From assembly GCA_035480235.1 (NCBI GenBank), contig DATIHX010000005.1:551-64550 (forward strand): a DNA stretch of 64,000 bases, written 5' to 3'. This DNA comes from Candidatus Saccharimonadales bacterium (GTDB taxonomy: Bacteria; Patescibacteriota; UBA1384; 2-12-FULL-50-11). Under the pieces are notes generated by a model, which was not told where the DNA came from, did not search any database, and was given only the letters and a program-made list of their open reading frames with translations. Made by a program: the position numbers and the translations under genes. Numbering within the stretch: the stretch's first letter is position 1; each line of letters begins with the position of its first letter. Of the stretch, positions 142 to 29,608 are shown piece by piece.

Positions 142-684
142 TTACCCAGCCGCCTTCATGGCCTTGCCTTGTTTCATCCGGATCTGCTCACCCTGGTAGC
201 GGACGCCTTTGCCCTTGTACGGCTCTGGCGGTCGAATGGCTCGGACTTCGGCGGCAAATTGGCCGATCTCCCGTTTGTCGCGGCCAGCCACGTTAATAAC
301 GTTCTTTTCAATTTTGACGGCCAGGCCTTCGGGAATAGCCAAGCGGACGGGGTGAGTGAAGCCGAGCTGGAGAACTAATTCTTCGCCTTCAATGGCGCCG
401 CGGTAACCGATACCAACCAATTCTAATTTCTTGGTAAAACCGTCTTTGGCGCCGGTGACAGCGTTTTGCAATAACGCTCGGACAGTGCCGTGAAGAGCGC
501 GGTAGTGTTTAAGGTCGCTCACCCGGTTCACCAGTAACTGGCCGTCTTTTTCGGTGACGGTAACGCCGTGCGGCAGAGCCACTTTCAGCTCGCCTTGCGG
601 GCCTTTGACGGTTGCTTCAACCGGGCCGAGCTCAACACTGACGCCCTCTAAAATCTTAACTGGCTTGATCCCGATTCTACTCAT
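142..684 (-). CDS. rplF: 50S ribosomal protein L6
   Basis: ORF track 142..723; start moved to ATG 682-684 ([11 protein letters not shown]...) preceded by GAGGAG SD; operon position. Confidence 0.9.
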
Positions 685-790
685 CGCTTTGCTCCTCGGA
701 ATCGGGAAATATCCAATAACCAATAATTAAGTTTTAAAGATTGAATATTATTTGAATATTGATTATTGAGTATTGAAAATTTCATTATAA
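685..790. repeat. AT-rich intercistronic spacer rpsH-rplF; degenerate copy (709-785) of the 116-nt module
   Basis: Shares atatcYaataaccaataattaagttt..aaagattgaatatt...atttgaatattgattattgaRtattgaaRatttc with 1163-1278. Confidence 0.8.
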
Positions 791-1162
791 TTACCAGACC
801 TCACACAATAATTCGCCGCCAACTTTTTGTTTGCGGGCTTGGTTGCCGGTTAAAACGCCTTTGGGGGTGGTTAAAATAACCATACCGAAGCCGGTTTTTG
901 GCCGGGGAATGGCTTGGTACTTAACGTAGCGGCGGATACCGGGCTTGCTGAGGCGTTTAATGTGGTTAAACGGCATATCGGTATTTAAAACGATATCAAG
1001 TTGGGTGCCGTTTTTATCAATGGAGGCGATAAAACCTTCACTTTTCAAAACCGCCGCCATCTCTTCCACCAACTTATTAGAGCGAGCGGTAACGGTTTTT
1101 TTATCGGCCATCGAAGCGTTCCGCAAACGGGTTAAAAAGTCGCTAACGGTGTCGTTATACAT
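791..1162 (-). CDS. rpsH: 30S ribosomal protein S8
   Basis: ORF track; MYNDTVSDFLTRLRNA... typical S8 N-terminus; GGAGG SD 8 nt upstream. Confidence 0.92.
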   Translation of the reverse strand: MYNDTVSDFLTRLRNASMADKKTVTARSNKLVEEMAAVLKSEGFIASIDKNGTQLDIVLNTDMPFNHIKRLSKPGIRRYVKYQAIPRPKTGFGMVILTTPKGVLTGNQARKQKVGGELLCEVW

Positions 1163-1279
1163 ACTTCAATCCTCCGGATTGGAAGCTAATATCTAATAAC
1201 CAATAATTAAGTTTCAAAGATTGAATATTCTTTATTTGAATATTATTTGAATATTGATTATTGAATATTGAAGATTTCT
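1163..1279. repeat. AT-rich intercistronic module, copy 1 (rpsN-rpsH)
   Basis: 116 nt, 4 mismatches to 2343-2458; TGAATATT words, inverted arms, SD hairpin. Confidence 0.9.
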
Positions 1280-1459
1280 TTACCATGAGGCCTTTCTGAC
1301 ACCAGGAATCTCACCCATTTGGGCGCGCTCACGAAAACAGATCCGGCAGATACCGAACTTGCGCAAGTAACCGTGCGGCCGGCCGCACAAAGCGCACCGG
1401 TTGACGGCGCGGGTGGAAAACTTGCTGACGGCCCTGGTTGAGTATCGTTTGCTAGCCAT
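1280..1459 (-). CDS. rpsN: 30S ribosomal protein S14, short Zn-ribbon (type Z) form
   Basis: ORF track 1280..1501; conserved part MASKRY...[23 protein letters not shown]...PGVRKASW with CxxC...CxxC; start set at ATG 1457-1459. Confidence 0.85.
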
Positions 1460-1475
1460 GGTAACAGATTCAAGT

Positions 1476-2015: not shown

Positions 2016-2341
2016 TATTTACCTTCCTTAGTAATAATCGGCTCTTTTGAGACCTTACTAATGCGTACTTTTTCTTGGCCGTTAACCCGAAACCCAACGC
2101 GCGTCGGTTTGTTACTAGCCGGGTCCAGTAACATGACGTTACTGATTTGCAGCGGCAAAGATTTGTCGATAATACCGCCCTGTGGGTTCTGTTGTGAGCG
2201 CTTGAGGTGTTTTTTAACCATATTCAGACCACTAACGATAACTTTACCGTCTTTGGCAAAAACCCGTTCAATGACGCCGGTTTTGTTGCGGTCGCGGCCG
2301 GTAATTACTAAAACTTTGTCGCCTTTTTTCAGTTTAGCCAT
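2015..2341 (-). CDS. rplX: 50S ribosomal protein L24
   Basis: ORF track 2015..2344 (first codon GTG); ATG 2339-2341 gives MAKLKKGDKVLVITGRDRNKTG, KOW motif; stop overlaps rplE start (TAATG). Confidence 0.9.
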   Translation of the reverse strand: MAKLKKGDKVLVITGRDRNKTGVIERVFAKDGKVIVSGLNMVKKHLKRSQQNPQGGIIDKSLPLQISNVMLLDPASNKPTRVGFRVNGQEKVRISKVSKEPIITKEGK

Positions 2342-2459
2342 CACTTCAATCCTCCGGATTGGAAGCTAATATCTAATAACCAATAATCAAGTTTCAAAGA
2401 TTGAATATTCTTTATTTGAATATTATTTGAATATTGATTATTAAGTATTGAAAATTTCG
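2342..2459. repeat. AT-rich intercistronic module, copy 2 (rplN-rplX)
   Basis: Ungapped alignment to 1163-1278 (offset 1180). Confidence 0.9.
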
Positions 2460-2828
2460 TCATAAGACATCCTTTGCTAAAGAAATAATTTTAGTGAAGC
2501 CTTTATCGCGCAGTTCCCGGGCGACGGGGCCAAAAATCCGGGTGCCTCGCGGCGTTCCGTCTGGGTTAATGACCACAGCGGCGTTGTCGTCGAAACGAAT
2601 GGTTGAGCCGTCAGCCCGGCGGCAGGGTTTGGTTTGGCGAACAATCACCGCTCGAACAACTTCGTGAGCTTTAACGTTAGCCCGGGGGATGGCGGTTTTA
2701 ACGGAAGCCACAACGATATCGCCGATCTCGGCGTCGTCGAAACGGCCCTGTTTGACAACCTTAATAACGCCTAGCGAACGAGCGCCAGAGTTATCGGCCA
2801 CGACCAGGCGAGTTAGAAGTTGAACCAT
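2460..2828 (-). CDS. rplN: 50S ribosomal protein L14
   Basis: ORF track 2460..2831 (first codon TTG); ATG 2826-2828 gives [16 protein letters not shown], classic L14. Confidence 0.92.
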
Positions 2829-2907
2829 CAACGATTTCCTCCGGAAATCGCAATATCCAATAACCGATAACTAAGTTTCAAGTATTGAGTATTGAGTATT
2901 GAGTATT
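2829..2907. repeat. AT-rich intercistronic spacer rpsQ-rplN with 7-nt tandem words
   Basis: agtattg x3 plus a variant at 2881-2908 facing ccaataaccgataac; SD hairpin 2832-2850. Confidence 0.85.
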
Positions 2908-3150
2908 TCATTTTGTTTTCTCAATTCGTTTCGTAATCTCCCAGCGTTTGTGACGGCTGAGCGGTTTGGTTTCAGCGATCTCAACTGTTTCGCCCATTTT
3001 GTACTCGTTATTTGGGTTTTGGGCCATAAATTTCCGGTGGCGTTGAAAGCGTTTCTTTAAGATTGGGTGAATGCGCCATAGCGATACCGCCACCACGGCC
3101 GTGTTGGTCATTTTGTCGGACACAATGATGCCGAGCTGAGTTTTACGCAT
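2908..3150 (-). CDS. rpsQ: 30S ribosomal protein S17
   Basis: ORF track; operon position, S17-like OB-fold sequence. Confidence 0.88.
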   Translation of the reverse strand: MRKTQLGIIVSDKMTNTAVVAVSLWRIHPILKKRFQRHRKFMAQNPNNEYKMGETVEIAETKPLSRHKRWEITKRIEKTK

Positions 3151-3373
3151 GAGTTTTTTCTTGAATTTGAGCGGTGACTTTTTCGTCCAAAATTGTTTTC
3201 AAGCGAGCGATGGTCTTTTTCAACTCGCCGATTTCTTTCGGGTTCTTTAGTTTGCCCAGTAATTTATCTTGGCGAAGAACCGTTAATTTCTTTTGGGCTT
3301 CTGTAATTCTACCAGAAATCTGGTTCAGCGGTAAGCCCTTGATCTCGCGCAGCTGCTCTAAACGTTTTGCCAT
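3143..3373 (-). CDS. rpmC: 50S ribosomal protein L29
   Basis: ORF track; helical 76 aa between rplP and rpsQ; overlaps rpsQ start. Confidence 0.85.
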   Translation of the reverse strand: MAKRLEQLREIKGLPLNQISGRITEAQKKLTVLRQDKLLGKLKNPKEIGELKKTIARLKTILDEKVTAQIQEKTHA

Positions 3374-3788: not shown

Positions 3789-4444
3789 TATTCAGTCTCC
3801 TCGCGGTCGGTAAACAGGCCGCGGTTAATCCAGACTTTAACGCCAACAACGCCGTAGGTGGTTTGGGCGTGATAAATGCTGTAGTCGATATCGAATTTGA
3901 AGCGAGAAAGCGGGATTGAGCCGTCTTGGAATTTTTCGGTTCGGGCGATCTCGGCGCCGTTCAAGCGGCCGGAAACGATAATTTTAATCCCTTGGGCTTT
4001 GCTGGCCATCGATTTTTCGATCGACTGTTTGCAGGCGCGGCGGTACGGAATGCGGCGTTCGATCTGGTTACCGATGTTTTGAGCGACGAGTGAAGCCGAG
4101 ATTTCGGGATGGCGGTCTTCCAAAATCTCCAATCGGACGACCGGCTGGCCGGTTGGGTAGAATTTCTTTTGGAGTTGGTCTTTCAGAAGATTAATCCCCT
4201 GCCCGCCGCGGCCGATCACTAAGCCGGGTTTGCTGGTGGTAATTTTAACAGTGATTTTGCCCTGGGAACGAACAATTTCCACATCACGAACGCCAGCGTT
4301 ATTGAGCTGTTTTTTAATAAAATCGCGAATTTTGAAGTCGGTAATTAAGTAATTGCGGAACTCACTGTTGCGGGCGAACCACTTACTCTGCCAGTTGGCA
4401 GTAATGCTCATCCGGTTACTAATCGGGTTAATCTTCTGACCCAT
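3788..4444 (-). CDS. rpsC: 30S ribosomal protein S3
   Basis: ORF track; MGQKINPI..., KH-domain GRGG motif. Confidence 0.92.
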
Positions 4445-4583
4445 CAGGCAATCCTCCGGATTGAAATACTAAATTCGAAATTCGAAATCCCAAACAAATT
4501 AAAATTATTCAATGACCAAATGTTTGAAACATTGGAATTTCGGTAATTAGTTATTGTTTGGTTTTTGGGTGATTGGGATTTCA
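4445..4583. repeat. AT-rich intercistronic hairpin spacer rplV-rpsC
   Basis: aaattcg/aaatccc words 4471-4491 face tttggtttttgggtgattgggattt; 34-nt identity with 6176-6209. Confidence 0.85.
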
Positions 4584-4973
4584 TTATTTTGTTTCCTTTT
4601 TGGTGGTACGGACTTTAGCTGCTGGTTTGGCTTTAACTTTTGGGGCTTCGTCGCTGACCGTCACGTTTAAGTGAGCGATGTGTTTAAGGTAAGCGTTCGA
4701 ACGACCACGGGAGTTCGGGCGCATCCGTTTAATTTTTGGGCCTTCAGTGGCCATAATAGCGCTGATCGTCGCCTTCTCGGCGCCGAGTTCCTTCTGCTCG
4801 GCGGCGGCTTTGGCCATCAAGAGAGCTTGATGCAAATAGCGGGCCGAATCTTGGCTCATCACGGCTGTTTGATTGAGGGCAGTTTCCAAGTTTTTACCCA
4901 CTAAAAGACGGCCGACTGGGCGGAGTTTCTTAGCGGAGTGGCGCAAATAACGGAGTTTAACAGTGACTTGCAT
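4584..4973 (-). CDS. rplV: 50S ribosomal protein L22 (Lys/Ala-rich C-terminal tail)
   Basis: ORF track; operon position and L22-like core. Confidence 0.88.
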   Translation of the reverse strand: MQVTVKLRYLRHSAKKLRPVGRLLVGKNLETALNQTAVMSQDSARYLHQALLMAKAAAEQKELGAEKATISAIMATEGPKIKRMRPNSRGRSNAYLKHIAHLNVTVSDEAPKVKAKPAAKVRTTKKETK

Positions 4974-5263: not shown

Positions 5264-6102
5264 TACTTGCTCTTTCTCCGGGTAACAATATATTTAGTGG
5301 TTCGTTTGTTGCGGCGCGTTCGGTAACCGAGGGCTGGTTTACCCCACGGCGTTTTCGGATGTTTCAAACCGATCGAGTTAACCGCTTCACCGCCGCCGTG
5401 TGGGTGATCAATTGGGTTCATCGCTTTACCGCGAACGGTTGGCCGCCAGCCCATGTGGCGTTTCCGGCCAGCTTTGGCGATCCGGATACGGTTGTGGGTG
5501 GTGTTAGAAACCTGACCGACCGATGCCATACATTCTAACAGAACCTTCCGGATTTCTGAAGAAGCCAGCTTAATGTAAGCGTATTTGCCTTCTTTGGCGG
5601 TTAAGGTGGCGGCCGAACCAGCCGAACGAACCATCTGGCCGCCGCGGCCCGGTTGCAGCTCGACGTTATGGACTTGGTAACCAACGGGGATGTCGGCGAG
5701 CTTTAAGCGCGAGCCAAGGCCGTAGCTGCGTTTAAGTCCAGAAGTAACTTTGTCGCCCACTTTCAGGCCTTCGGGCGCTAAAATGTAGGTTTTTTGCGGC
5801 TGATCGTTAGTACTAGGGCGCTCGAGCAAGGCGATGAAAGCGCTGCGGTTTGGGTCGTATTCAAGAGCAGTGACAGTCGCTTCCCCTTCAAAGGGCAGGA
5901 ATTTAAAGTCGATCACCCGGAATAAACGCTTGGCGCCGCCGCCGCGATGGCGAACGGAAATCGAACCGCTGTCGTCGCGACCGGCGTGTTTGCGCAGTTT
6001 AATAGTTAAAGATTTTTCCGGGCGCTTTTTGGTGAGCGTGCCAAAGTCGCCGTAGGTTAAATGACGGATGGCGGGGCTAGTTGGTTTAACGGCACGGGGC
6101 AT
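5263..6102 (-). CDS. rplB: 50S ribosomal protein L2
   Basis: ORF track 5263..6105 (first codon TTG); ATG 6100-6102; [11 protein letters not shown] motif. Confidence 0.93.
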
Positions 6103-6205
6103 CAAGCAATCCTCCGGATTGAAAAACCAATTTCAAAATCCCAAATCCCAAACATATTGAAAATTTGGTAATTGATTATTGTTTGGTTTTTGGGTGATTG
6201 GGATT
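6103..6205. repeat. AT-rich intercistronic hairpin spacer rplW-rplB
   Basis: Same right arm and SD hairpin as 4445-4583. Confidence 0.85.
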
Positions 6206-6517
6206 TCATGTATTTTTTTCCTTCTTTTTGTCGTCTTTTTCGGTTAAACTCTCGAAACCGGGGATTTTTTGTTTGGGCGGCAACTGAACGTAAGCTTTAC
6301 GGATTTGAGCCCGAACACCTGGGCGGCGTTTAAAGTTAACTTTTTTGGCCGGCAAATTGACGATCCGGACCGAGAGCGGTGTGACAGCGTAGAGCTGGTG
6401 AAGCTCTTTGGTGACGGTGGTTTTGTTAGCATCTTTTTCGATCAAAAAGACATACAAACCTTTGTCGATGGCGGCGGCCGATTTCTCTGTTAAATACGGT
6501 TGGATAACACGGTTCAT
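6206..6517 (-). CDS. rplW: 50S ribosomal protein L23
   Basis: ORF track; operon position between rplD and rplB. Confidence 0.88.
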   Translation of the reverse strand: MNRVIQPYLTEKSAAAIDKGLYVFLIEKDANKTTVTKELHQLYAVTPLSVRIVNLPAKKVNFKRRPGVRAQIRKAYVQLPPKQKIPGFESLTEKDDKKKEKNT

Positions 6518-7775: not shown

Positions 7776-7804
7776 ATTATGCATTAATCGGGTTCAAGAG
7801 TCAA
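7776..7804 (-). promoter_or_regulatory. promoter-like TTGACT-17-CATAAT upstream of rplC
   Basis: Hexamers and spacing read on the minus strand. Confidence 0.55.
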
Positions 7805-7823: not shown

Positions 7824-8339
7824 CTACTTTAATAACTCACCGAATTGTTTTTTAACTTTGTCGAGTTTGGGGTTGATGACAATTTGGCAGTACGGTTCGC
7901 GACTATGGTTAGAAAAGTAGTCACGATGGTAATTTTCGGCCAGGTAAAAGTGGTCAAGCGGCTGAACCTTGGTGACAACGGAATTGCCATCTTGATTGGA
8001 AGCATTAATTTCCACGATAAACTTTTCAGCTGCCGTTTTTTGCTCCTCAGTCGTGTATAAAACTAACGATCGGTACTGCGGGCCGACGTCAGCACCTTGG
8101 CGGTTAAGGGTAGTTGGGTCGTGAGTGGCGAAAAAGACGGTGAGAAGTTTTTCGTAATCAATCTCAGCGGGATCATACTCAATTTTCACCGCTTCGGCGT
8201 GATCGCCAATTGAATGATAATTTGGGTTTGGTGTTATGCCGCCAGCGTAACCAGGTTCAACACTCTTGACGCCTTTCAACATCTTAAAGATGGCTTCGGT
8301 ACACCAGAAACACCCGCCAGCAAAAACCGCTACTGCCAT
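7824..8339 (-). CDS. msrA: peptide-methionine (S)-S-oxide reductase
   Basis: ORF track; AVFAGGCFWCTE active-site motif and GYAGG. Confidence 0.88.
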   Translation of the reverse strand: MAVAVFAGGCFWCTEAIFKMLKGVKSVEPGYAGGITPNPNYHSIGDHAEAVKIEYDPAEIDYEKLLTVFFATHDPTTLNRQGADVGPQYRSLVLYTTEEQKTAAEKFIVEINASNQDGNSVVTKVQPLDHFYLAENYHRDYFSNHSREPYCQIVINPKLDKVKKQFGELLK

Positions 8340-27949: not shown

Positions 27950-28090
27950 AAGTCCATTATACCTTAGTAAAGGTAAAAAATTTTCAATAATTAATATTTA
28001 AGTTACAAGTAATACTTAGAGAATTAATAATTAAGTATTAGAACATTGAATATTATTTGTAACTTAGTTATTGAATATTGGTTATTTCTT
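27950..28090. repeat. AT-rich imperfect long hairpin spacer upstream of obg
   Basis: taagttacaa/ttgtaactta and aatactta/taagtatt complementary blocks; contains TATAAT 6 nt before the obg ATG. Confidence 0.75.
27956..27961 (-). promoter_or_regulatory. consensus -10 TATAAT 6 nt upstream of the obg ATG; leaderless candidate
   Basis: No SD between the -10 and ATG 27947-27949. Confidence 0.45.
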
Positions 28091-29608
28091 TTAGTTCGTT
28101 GTGCTGAATACCACTTTCAACAGCTCTTGATAGAGGACCGTTGGGTTAGCGCCGAAGGTATCGTCGTAGTTAATAGCGTAGCTAACAGTCGGTAAGAGTG
28201 ACGGCAAGCGAACCGAGTGGCCGGCCACAAAAATGCCTTTAGCCGACAAACCGTTGCTGGGCACTTGGTAGCCAAAGGTGATATCGCTGTTGGTGCCGAT
28301 GGCCGCGTAGGCGCCGCAACCGATGGCTGGGCTAACGAAATTGATACTGCCAGTGGCGATAATCCCCAACCGGGTGCCGGGCGCACAGGTGATGTTGCCG
28401 TCCAACTCGACCGAGCCGTTAACGGCGATGGTCCCACTGCCGGTAAAGGTGATGTTGCCGGGGATTCGCAAGAAACTGTTGCTCTGCAAATACCAGAGTT
28501 TGCCCTCGGGTGGCGTCGAAAAACTACTGACGGCCGGGTTGGCTGGGTCGTTGGTGCTGGAATTGAGGTTCCAGGTGCCACCGCTGAAAGTGGTACCGCT
28601 TTGGAAATTAGCGCCGCCTGGTACGGTACCGCCGGTTCGCTTAGCGAAAAGCGTATTCAGCTCCGGCTGAACATTAGCCCAATTAAACTTGGTAGCGCTC
28701 TGGTTGAGGTAATTTTGAATTTTTTGGCTGGCGTTGGCGATGTTACCGACGGTGCCGCCGATGGCGATAGCGTTGGAGACGGCGTTGAAATCGAAGCCGT
28801 CAATGGTTCCGGCAGCCGCCACGTTGCCTTGGATGTTAATGGCACCGGTGACGCCCAGCGGGATCGCCTGAAGGGTATAAATTGGGCCAGTGGTGCCGCG
28901 TTCGGTCGTATCAAATTTCACATTTTCTTTGAGGCAGAGAAAGCCGCCACCGATATCGACGGCGCCGGTGTTGGTACAAATATAAGTGTCGTTGAGGTCG
29001 TTATGGCGCGGAAAAGTGGTGACAAATTGCTGGTAACTGGCGACGGCCGTTTTGGGCAAAGTAGTAGCGCCCCCGCCGGATTTGAAGGTCAGCCGGTAAG
29101 GAAAAACAATTTTGGCGCAGACCGCAAAACAGGGAAACGGCGGAGCAAAAGCTTGAGCGGTTAACGAGCTTTGGAGTTTTTTCTCAAGCGTTGCCAGTAA
29201 ACTGCCGCCCTTTTGGTTATGTAAAGCCAGCTGGCCGCCGCCCTTGACGAAACCCTGAACGGTGATGATGTAGCCCTGCGAACGAGTATTGTCGAGATTG
29301 CTGGAATCGTAATGAGTGGTGGTGTTGACGGTGTACGGCCCAGCCGTGGTTGGCGCAAATTGGCCGGTCGCTGGGTTAAAAGTGAAAGTTTGAGTGCCAA
29401 CGTTGCCGGCGTTACCGATCCGCAGTTGATCCGGAGTTAACAGCTCTTTAGCCGGCAAATAAATGGTGAGGGTACCGGTGGTTGTGCCCCCGCCACCAGT
29501 ACCGCCGCCGATGCCGCCTACTTGGGCGGCGCTACGTTTGGGCGCTAAAGTGAAAATAACGGCGACAAGCCCGAGCGCTAAAATAATTTGCCAGAGTCGT
29601 TTGGTCAT
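28091..29608 (-). CDS. hypothetical secreted Gly/Thr/Asn-rich protein
   Basis: ORF track 505 aa; N-terminal signal/anchor LWQIILALGLVAVIFTLA then GGIGGGTGGGGTTTG; repetitive G-x-I/V segments suggest a beta-rich surface protein; overlaps upstream ORF by 4 nt. Confidence 0.65.
   Translation of the reverse strand: MTKRLWQIILALGLVAVIFTLAPKRSAAQVGGIGGGTGGGGTTTGTLTIYLPAKELLTPDQLRIGNAGNVGTQTFTFNPATGQFAPTTAGPYTVNTTTHYDSSNLDNTRSQGYIITVQGFVKGGGQLALHNQKGGSLLATLEKKLQSSLTAQAFAPPFPCFAVCAKIVFPYRLTFKSGGGATTLPKTAVASYQQFVTTFPRHNDLNDTYICTNTGAVDIGGGFLCLKENVKFDTTERGTTGPIYTLQAIPLGVTGAINIQGNVAAAGTIDGFDFNAVSNAIAIGGTVGNIANASQKIQNYLNQSATKFNWANVQPELNTLFAKRTGGTVPGGANFQSGTTFSGGTWNLNSSTNDPANPAVSSFSTPPEGKLWYLQSNSFLRIPGNITFTGSGTIAVNGSVELDGNITCAPGTRLGIIATGSINFVSPAIGCGAYAAIGTNSDITFGYQVPSNGLSAKGIFVAGHSVRLPSLLPTVSYAINYDDTFGANPTVLYQELLKVVFSTTN

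Follow-up and report, generated by a model that had tools for sequence, protein, structure and literature searches.

Shine-Dalgarno hairpins at the ends of inserted spacers in a Saccharimonadales ribosomal-protein cluster, and a possible relay of ribosomes across them

The ribosomal-protein cluster, its hairpins and its spacers

The stretch of Candidatus Saccharimonadales DNA analysed here, 64,000 nucleotides long and referred to below as the window, begins with an S10/spc-type ribosomal-protein cluster that takes up its first 7.7 kb on the minus strand. At five sites within this cluster the Shine-Dalgarno (SD) sequence is embedded in a small hairpin, and the genes downstream are identified by NCBIfam equivalog models as those for S8, L24, L14, S3 and L2 (L6 is also named), in agreement with the names rpsH, rplX, rplN, rpsC and rplB given in a preliminary description of this DNA. 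Read in the sense of the mRNA, each site has the layout 5' arm-GGA-3' arm, in which the loop is the GGA of the SD GGAGG, and the 3' arm opens with the last GG of the SD and runs on into the spacer between the SD and the ATG. This hairpin is the 3' terminal module of an inserted intercistronic element, or "relay spacer", of a lineage-restricted class, and not a property of ribosomal-protein genes as such. The five hairpins are as follows.

1167-1181, minus strand: SD hairpin before rpsH, CAATCC-GGA-GGATTG
2347-2361, minus strand: SD hairpin before rplX, CAATCC-GGA-GGATTG; one bulge extends the stem to CTT(C)CAATCC/GGATTGAAG; -8.7 kcal/mol
2831..2851, minus strand: SD hairpin before rplN, GCGATTTCC-GGA-GGAAATCGT, 9 pairs; -10.5 kcal/mol (25-nt window); covariance model match of 29.5 bits
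4449-4463, minus strand: SD hairpin before rpsC, CAATCC-GGA-GGATTG
6107-6121, minus strand: SD hairpin before rplB, CAATCC-GGA-GGATTG

The four copies of CAATCC-GGA-GGATTG that had been described are exact, and their plus-strand pattern, CAATCCTCCGGATTG, is matched four times in the window at up to two mismatches, against 0.15 expected, a number that none of 100 shuffles reaches. The variant reported before rplN at 2832-2850 is likewise present, as CGATTTCC-TCC-GGAAATCG on the plus strand, and its stem is longer than the 8 bp originally claimed, with nine pairs over 2831-2851 and a terminal G.U pair. The CAATCC copies are not independent of each other, lying within two pairs of repeated spacers that are 97% and 80-86% identical, so the independent evidence for the structure comes from differing arms elsewhere in the genome and in relatives. 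A search of the 64-kb window on both strands with the Rfam covariance models at their gathering scores gave no match to ribosomal-protein leaders, thermometers or any other family.

The spacers have a common anatomy. Their bodies are 70-190 nt long and AT-rich, and are built from arrays with a 7-nt period followed by the imperfect reverse complement of these arrays, giving a long weak hairpin. The small terminal hairpin has 6-9 bp, a GGA loop and a 3' arm that takes in the final GG of the SD and most of the distance from SD to start codon, and the spacer ends in a stop codon that overlaps the ATG of the real gene (TGATG, TAATG or ATGA). Six long spacers lie within the cluster, each with a small open reading frame (mini-ORF) that bridges the flanking genes; they are listed here together with one copy of the repeat family found in a spacer that is not operon-internal.

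681..785, minus strand: rpsH>rplF (L6) spacer; 34-codon bridging mini-ORF, its stop overlapping the rplF ATG as ATGA (+1)
1155..1286, minus strand: rpsN (S14)>rpsH (S8) spacer; 43-codon bridging mini-ORF
2341..2463, minus strand: rplN>rplX (L24) spacer; 40-codon bridging mini-ORF with its stop at -2
2828..2911, minus strand: rpsQ (S17)>rplN (L14) spacer; 27-codon bridging mini-ORF; period-7 AGTATTG x3.9 at 2881-2907
4444..4584, minus strand: rplV (L22)>rpsC (S3) spacer; 46-codon bridging mini-ORF, 5' TAATG and 3' TGATG; period-7 GAAATTC x3.7 at 4463-4488
6102..6209, minus strand: rplW (L23)>rplB (L2) spacer; 35-codon bridging mini-ORF; period-7 AAATCCC x2.4 at 6136-6152
28046..28095, no strand assigned: repeat-family copy in a spacer that is not operon-internal; no open frame and no SD hairpin (C5:28596-28641 in contig coordinates, all frames closed)

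The six junctions measure 103 nt (rplW>rplB), 139 nt (rplV>rpsC), 79 nt (rpsQ>rplN), 118 nt (rplN>rplX), 117 nt (rpsN>rpsH) and 104 nt (rpsH>rplF), and the spacers contain about 25-34% GC against 51% for the genome. Period-7 tandem arrays are reported by Tandem Repeats Finder in all six, and 24 of its 38 rows for locus L074 of a relative, G004, are also of period 7. Each cluster spacer is predicted to fold into a long imperfect hairpin with the small SD hairpin directly after it; the rpsH>rplF spacer belongs to the same repeat family and has no clear SD hairpin, its SD, GAGGAG, lying in a stem of only 3 bp. In the rpsQ>rplN spacer the mini-ORF begins with an ATG (2911-2909) that forms ATGA with the rpsQ stop, and ends with a TGA (2830-2828) that forms TGATG with the rplN ATG; 30 codons are open in this frame, with the stop at -2, while the remaining frames are closed. 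The mini-ORF between rpsN and rpsH starts within the last codons of S14 and stops 5 nt past the rpsH ATG. S14 itself (rpsN, 1280-1465, minus strand) is of the short form, with 61 residues and two CxxC pairs, and its last codons, TCA TGG TAA, hold the ATG of the bridging mini-ORF both in the window and in G004.

Several of the spacers are copies of one another. The rplN>rplX spacer (2343-2458) is 97% identical to that of rpsN>rpsH (1163-1278), the rplW>rplB spacer is 80-86% identical to that before rpsC, and a BLAST search with one spacer as query finds 22 matches in this bacterium's assembly, three of them at 90-97% identity, several in other intergenic regions and some in both orientations. 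The spacers of relatives mostly have the architecture in common and not the sequence. The junctions between spacers and genes were confirmed, with no differences, by contigs from four DNA runs of one soil-metagenome study (600-1192, 1233-2372, 2413-3313 and 4270-4584); these contigs end inside the repeated spacer cores, and joints with sides of 18-39 letters were not counted as presence or absence alleles. A block of seven linked substitutions at 2388-2420, in the core of the rplN>rplX spacer, occurs in contigs of runs X1 and X2 and is most likely due to cross-mapping of a near-identical paralogous spacer, not to an allele.

Pairing and distribution of the hairpin

The whole assembly of this bacterium (G000; 680 kb, 87% complete, 51% GC, from a genome of about 0.7 Mb) contains 150 SD sites when these are counted as GGAGG 4-10 nt ahead of the start codon in ORFs of 60 codons or more. 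A strict hairpin, defined as 6 or more uninterrupted Watson-Crick pairs around a loop of 3-4 nt, the 3' arm starting inside GGAGG, is found at 13 of them, against a mean of 0.27 when the flanks are shuffled (maximum 2 in 200 shuffles). Of the other GGAGG sites, 5 of 630 carry the strict hairpin. The arms vary among the sites of this genome (CAAT, CTCAAT, AAATCG, ACAAATT, AATT and CCAAA). A looser measure, with loops of 3-7 nt and G.U pairs allowed, was replaced by this strict triloop or tetraloop measure on account of its poor separation of SD sites from controls (stems of at least 8 bp at 12 of 150 SD sites, 108 of 3000 shuffled and 23 of 630 other sites).

A gapless alignment of 24 hairpins, 11 from G000 and 13 from five relatives, describes a stem of nine pairs. 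GGAG is invariant in all 24 and stands at a fixed distance from the start codon (5-9 nt upstream), while the arms are otherwise unrelated, as in the arm pairs TTTTGCCC/GGGCAAAA, CTTAATTAC/GTAATTAAG and GCACAACC/GGTTGTGT. Across the alignment 87.5% of cells are paired, compared with 57.4% when partners are shuffled (none of 500 shuffles is as high), a figure that shows the arms to be free and not how frequent the hairpin is, since the rows were chosen for having one. Sliding the partners by 1-3 columns leaves 29-51% of cells paired, and in the inner six pairs 142 of 144 cells are paired. The earlier proposal that pairing is kept while the arms change is borne out, with eight of the nine pairs changing on both sides and a covariation score of 0.764 against 0.219 for shuffled partners (0 of 500 as high). 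Judged by these substitution patterns, the hairpin stem is selected or maintained. Wobble pairs possible only in the sense RNA outnumber A.C or C.A combinations by 5 to 0 in the two innermost pairs and by 16 to 3 overall, which hints weakly at pairing at the level of RNA.

The closing pair is C-G in 20 of the 24 hairpins. Predicted stabilities in 25-nt windows range from -1.2 to -10.5 kcal/mol, with most between -4 and -10, compared with -7.0 kcal/mol for GGAGG:CCUCC, and the predicted minimum free energy structure includes the hairpin in 23 of 24 windows. In these predictions the SD of the downstream cistron is sequestered in secondary structure. The anti-SD was taken from the relative G007, whose 16S rRNA 3' end has the canonical CCTCC, as the 16S rRNA gene is absent from the 87%-complete assembly; the 3' end in G011 looks aberrant and was not used. 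The 16S model matches G011 (L190/L191, C2:80818-85019) in two pieces, and its full-length match there scores low, at 693.8 bits against 1418.7 in G007, over a longer span of 2153 nt, which suggests an insertion or intron in that gene.

The nature of the spacers becomes apparent when the operon is compared between G000 and 17 genomes of the same family, giving 18 operons in which every junction was measured. Junctions containing runs of N (L069, G012 rplC>rplD; L071, G014 rplE>rpsN; also L177) were excluded from the counts; such runs in the relatives' spacers, bordered by duplicated gene ends, are probably scaffolding gaps at repeats. Most junctions across the relatives measure -23 to +10 nt and have no spacer, and in 11 of the 17 related operons all measured junctions are shorter than 40 nt. 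Long spacers are sporadic, occurring in G004 (seven junctions, 57-162 nt), G014, G011, G015, G007 and G010, partly at the same junctions as in the window (rplW>rplB, rplV>rpsC, rplN>rplX and rpsN>rpsH) and partly at others. When hairpins are tallied with a stem of at least 6 bp, a GGA triloop and a position within the last 35 nt of the junction, they are present in 15 of the 21 spacers with 70 nt or more, in one of the seven with 40-69 nt and in none of the 216 junctions shorter than 40 nt. The hairpin is for this reason a property of the inserted spacer and not of ribosomal-protein genes. The initial view of it as a feature of ribosomal-protein gene leaders does not survive the empty tight junctions, nor its occurrence before genes of other kinds, which include those for YidC, a membrane protein and EF-Ts-like, enolase-like and sigma-factor-like proteins.

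Congeners show where the insertion falls. Empty sites read ...TAATG-gene and filled sites ...TAATG-[spacer]-TGATG-gene, as at rpsC, which places the spacer exactly at the ancestral start codon. The rplV-rpsC spacers of two congeners differ in length by 21 nt, which is three heptads. When the spacer ends were compared for a target-site duplication, the ATG alone was common to both, and as this is required by function it does not demonstrate a mechanism of transposition.

A covariance model (CM) built from the hairpin was run against G000 and against a sample of 150 other genomes of the class, 18 from the same family and 132 from other families. In G000 it finds 13 sites at E below 0.1, two of them new, and matches occur in seven of the 18 same-family genomes (16 in G004, 6 in G007, 5 each in G011, G015 and G014, and 1 each in G006 and G008). 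The same-family matches inspected in relatives all have a bridging frame (18 of 18), and the genes that follow same-family matches, named from their first residues only, are S12-, S13-, L35-, L20-, EF-Ts-, enolase-, sigma-factor- and pilus-ATPase-like. Six of the 132 genomes from other families have one match each, about the rate expected from the E-value threshold; five of these six matches have the AT-rich appearance of heptads plus hairpin and two have a bridging frame. In a phylum-wide sample, four of 150 other genomes have one match each, again about the chance rate. Two of the four lie inside coding sequence and two are genuine look-alikes from other classes, upstream of S12-like and EF-P-like genes and with no bridging ORF. 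Within G000, seven of the eight hairpin-bearing spacers have a bridging ORF, the exception being C8:121165-121189.

Bridging frames and the readings they allow

The spacers examined in G000 are open in one frame. In 10 of 11 this frame begins with an ATG where the upstream gene stops and ends with a stop codon two bases ahead of the next gene's ATG (TGATG or TAATG), while the other two frames are closed, and in the eleventh, before rpsH, it ends 5 nt past the ATG. An open sense frame is found in all 21 spacers of at least 70 nt from seven genomes (one of which, G014 rplC>rplD, possibly has a mis-called start), compared with 3 of 21 in antisense and a mean of 5.7 in dinucleotide shuffles (maximum 11 of 300 shuffles). 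An in-frame ATG is present in 20 of the 21, at -11 to +16 nt from where the upstream stop ends, and the mini-ORFs, 23-57 codons long, overlap the downstream ATG with their stop in 18 of 20 (16 at -2 and 2 at +1). With stops at -2, +1 or +5 relative to that ATG in 20 of 21 spacers, the hairpin falls within the last codons of the mini-ORF. In 13 of 20 the mini-ORF ATG has an SD-like motif before it, namely the former SD, which lies within the last part of the upstream gene.

The same pattern extends beyond the cluster. In a genome-wide census of AT-rich co-directional spacers of 90-260 nt, based on a home-made codon-score gene caller (767 genes, with S14 missed), 16 of 28 have an open sense frame, compared with an expectation of 2.33 (never above 7 in 300 shuffles) and with 3 of 28 in antisense, whereas only one of 14 divergent or convergent AT-rich spacers is open. 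An unrestricted census, with 84 of 165 spacers open against about 60 in shuffles, was discarded because crude start calls had produced GC-rich "spacers". Copies of the repeat family that do not lie between coupled genes have stops in every frame, which suggests that openness is kept only where it matters. The peptides themselves are low-complexity read-outs of the 7-nt arrays, unrelated between spacers, and the conserved hairpin is read in different frames by two repeat families, as QSGGLK and SIRRIA, so that openness, and not the peptide, is what is selected.

We lean modestly towards the reading that the spacers and their masked SD together form a translational relay, which keeps the hand-over of ribosomes intact across the insertion. 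A ribosome leaving the upstream gene would restart on the overlapping ATG of the mini-ORF, using the ancestral initiation region, and its translation through the spacer would melt both the long weak hairpin and the SD hairpin. It would then terminate on the stop that overlaps the real ATG, with the SD, 8-9 nt upstream, now single-stranded and positioned under the anti-SD, and the same ribosome would reinitiate on the gene that follows. With no ribosome passing, the hairpin would re-form and limit independent initiation. Two roles had been suggested at the outset, translational coupling and repression within the operon. Coupling has gained much in plausibility, as each operon-internal hairpin coincides with the closing codons of a bridging mini-ORF that shares bases of its stop with the downstream ATG; for autogenous repression no evidence was found, and no Rfam leader model matches in the window.

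Several points weigh against the relay and the selection of an RNA stem on which it depends. Beyond the way in which the rows of the alignment were chosen, its genomes are related and hence not independent samples. Folding has no strand asymmetry, both DNA strands folding about equally well, and perfect palindromes can be maintained by template-switch mutation with no selection on RNA. Six of the 21 inserted spacers have a bridging ORF and no clear hairpin. Conversely, the hairpins that lack a bridging ORF (at C8:121165-121189, in four of six matches from other families and in the two from other classes) indicate that coupling is not the only role of the structure. Finally, the promoter-like sequence TTGAAA-N18-GATATT in three spacers has its predicted start at or inside the 5' arm of the hairpin, and transcripts begun there would lack part or all of the stem.

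A more tentative proposal, which we regard as possible and rather unlikely, is that the spacers are insertion elements which propagate themselves, target start codons and are transparent to translation. A copy would carry its own start codon, a frame free of stops, a masked SD and overlapping stop and start codons, and could in this way settle in essential, tightly coupled operons of a 0.7-Mb genome and leave ribosome hand-over unbroken. The heptad arrays would gain or lose copies only by steps that preserve the frame, and the difference of three heptads between the rplV-rpsC spacers of the two congeners fits such steps.

Among the alternatives to the relay, the one that survives best, though we consider it unlikely, is an internal promoter cassette, in which an AT-rich promoter with a UP-like region, -35 and -10 would precede highly expressed genes. 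The palindrome at the transcription start would either be a hairpin that stabilises the 5' end of the transcript or act at the DNA level in the region transcribed first, and the open frame would merely let read-through ribosomes pass, which is compatible with a relay. The motif TTGAAA-N18-GATATT does occur on the gene strand at 1217-1188, 2397-2368 and 2881-2852. Promoter-like sites number 14 in the region, where shuffles give 6.6 +/- 2.5; copies are found in either orientation within divergent spacers, and the same motif family lies 6 nt before SD-less ATGs elsewhere, as in sigma-factor-like and response-regulator-like genes, which fits leaderless mRNAs. Consensus matches are, however, weak evidence in sequence of 25% GC; a scan of the rpsC and rplB spacers gave no promoter-like site, and none is evident in most of the relatives' spacers that have the hairpin and ORF. 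Nor does the -10-like motif stand at a constant distance from the hairpin, the gap being 7 nt in rpsH, rplX and rpsI and 0 nt in rplN and rplT, and a promoter alone leaves unexplained the start and stop overlaps at both ends and the frame that is open only in sense. If such promoters were active as well, two classes of mRNA would result, read-through transcripts with a masked SD and locally started ones with a free SD.

Several AT-rich spacers of this genome end with no SD (C3:116012-116121, plus strand; C9:65798-65906, minus strand; C9:6094-6205, plus strand; and 27950-28090 of the window, which is C5:28500-28640), and they place a -10-like hexamer (GATATT, AAAATT, GCTATT or TATAAT) exactly 6 nt before the ATG, some with TTGnAA 18 nt upstream. 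Their layout suggests leaderless mRNAs, for example for the sigma-factor-like and response-regulator-like genes. At the upstream end of the cluster, the best promoter-like site of the region (7776-7804, minus strand; TTGACT-17-CATAAT, 10 of 12 matches) lies directly upstream of rplC. It is itself preceded by a 171-codon ORF (7824-8339, minus strand) with a GCFWC motif, which we take as a hint of a methionine sulfoxide reductase. This ORF is not rpsJ, so S10 is not next to L3 in this cluster.

We find it less probable still that the hairpin is a general structured-SD module independent of coupling, serving as a standby site with an AU-rich landing flank, as a thermometer-like switch or as protection of the initiation region, with the mini-ORF a secondary adaptation of operon-internal copies. 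GGA-loop hairpins at spacers with no bridging ORF, in G000 as well as in other families and classes, are what such a module would give, as are the consistently AU-rich upstream sequence and the moderate stability of most windows. The bridging ORFs at all 18 inspected CM matches in relatives and in seven of eight hairpin-bearing spacers of G000 argue against independence from coupling. Thermometers of the fourU type rely on U-rich pairing, unlike the C-G pairs that close 20 of the 24 stems, and the window has no match to an RNA thermometer or other Rfam family.

An explanation purely at the level of DNA is less likely, and we would call it improbable: the palindrome would be a mobile-element end or recognition hairpin, or a quasi-palindrome made by template switching, and its overlap with the SD would be incidental. 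The equal folding of both strands, the recent copying implied by copies 90-97% identical within G000, the presence or absence of insertions among congeners and the long palindromes that make up the body of the element are all in its favour. Yet the centre of the palindrome is always the SD, with GGAG in 24 of 24 at a fixed distance from the start codon; the arms differ wholly between copies, even within one genome (G004), which argues against sequence-specific recognition by an enzyme; and the excess of sense-only wobble pairs, weak evidence in itself, points the same way. It is most improbable of all that the mini-ORFs encode functional small proteins, with the hairpin as an ordinary part of the 3' end of their coding sequence. 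In favour are the open frames with their start codons and the listing of one mini-ORF as a called protein in the protein collection, though only as the window's own entry. Against this, a word-based search among proteins of 22-70 residues, which may miss weak relatives, found no homologue beyond that entry, the peptides are of low complexity and unrelated, the hairpin is read in two frames, and conservation tracks the nucleotide sequence and not the codons.

Known systems and what the spacers may mean

The proposed relay draws on established kinds of translational coupling, by RNA unfolding and by reinitiation or scanning, and hairpins that mask a ribosome-binding site (RBS) in this way are described for E. 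coli rpmI-rplT, phage f1 genes VII-IX and MS2 coat-lysis, among the examples in the accessible part of the source (PMC12548453). As in coupling by unfolding, the downstream SD and spacer are paired here, an upstream ORF crosses the structure, stop and start overlap or lie close together, and ribosomal-protein operons are involved. By contrast with the examples seen there, the upstream ORF is not a real gene but a filler of 23-57 codons in an inserted spacer, and the pairing is that of a minimal local hairpin whose GGA loop never changes and whose arms differ among the dozens of junctions at which it is found. The hallmark of termination-reinitiation is also present, namely an overlapping stop and start (ATGA, TGATG or TAATG) in 18 of 20 with the SD inside the upstream ORF.

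The nearest analogue appears to be found in integrons, where termination-reinitiation on ORF-11, ORF-17, ORF-18 and ORFs internal to attC is described, in the portion of the source available, as ferrying ribosomes across the hairpin of the recombination site (PMC8876359). There too the intercistronic element is palindromic, and the next cistron is again translated thanks to a short ORF, itself non-functional, that runs across it. Unlike what that portion describes, the spacers lie in core housekeeping operons, are AT-rich with a 7-nt periodicity and carry a masked SD of their own; no integrase, attC core site or cassette array was seen here, in an analysis that made no search aimed at them.

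The repeats themselves have precedents. A 2026 preprint describes a period-7 cluster, #156,623, mostly from Patescibacteriota, in which a fixed 4-mer plus a variable 3-mer is repeated and followed by a reverse-complement array (bioRxiv 10.64898/2026.10.21.760802). It reports co-directional neighbours and, in its accessible part, proposes no function and mentions no SD hairpin, bridging ORF or insertion at start codons (10.64898/2026.10.21.760802). The spacers resemble this cluster, by its description and not by comparison of sequences, in the period-7 array with its reverse-complement copy, in the co-directional flanking genes and in the phylum. In marine Beggiatoaceae, direct repeats of the heptamer TAACTGA lie immediately 5' of start codons, including those in ribosomal-protein operons, and a translational role has been suggested (PMC4679880). 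The likeness is in heptanucleotide arrays placed directly before start codons, also within ribosomal-protein operons. As far as the accessible part of that source describes them, the Beggiatoaceae repeats differ in being direct repeats of a single heptamer with no reverse-complement array, in genomes where canonical RBSs are rare, and with no ORF or hairpin described, whereas in the spacers the heptamers vary and a strong masked SD is present. In one spacer of G004 (L074 13622-13652, 2986-3012) the array is a circular permutation of TAACTGA on the strand opposite the genes, which may be coincidence. Rickettsia palindromic elements and repeats of the MITE, REP and Correia type are short palindromes that spread in small genomes and are tolerated by staying translatable. 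Rickettsia elements lie in frame inside genes and share their sequence, unlike the spacers, which form separate mini-cistrons and mostly share only an architecture.

What appears to be new is the combination of a masked SD, a bridging ORF and insertion at the start codon, whereas coupling by unfolding or reinitiation and period-7 palindromes are already known. No published description of this combination in Patescibacteria was found, although supplements, such as figure S11B of the preprint, could hold relevant detail.

Ribosomal-protein operons are among the most conserved and tightly packed arrays of genes, and spacers of 70-190 nt within them are unexpected in a genome of about 0.7 Mb. To our knowledge, gene regulation in Saccharibacteria is almost unstudied. 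The spacers share a grammar: an ATG sits at the stop of the preceding gene, the frame that follows is open, the SD is masked, and a stop falls on the ATG of the next gene. If they are indeed transparent elements, they would connect a repeat with the translation machinery in a new way. Mini-ORFs of this sort get called as hypothetical genes, which is a warning for annotation. With dozens of hairpins whose arm sequences are free, the spacers offer a natural test set for models of unfolding and reinitiation, and they offer a testable function for part of the period-7 palindromic arrays of Patescibacteriota. On the evidence of their architecture they look like a natural, repeatedly evolved way of keeping genes coupled across an insertion, and, if the relay operates as proposed, the stoichiometric coupling of genes that originally overlapped would outlast an insertion of 100 nt.

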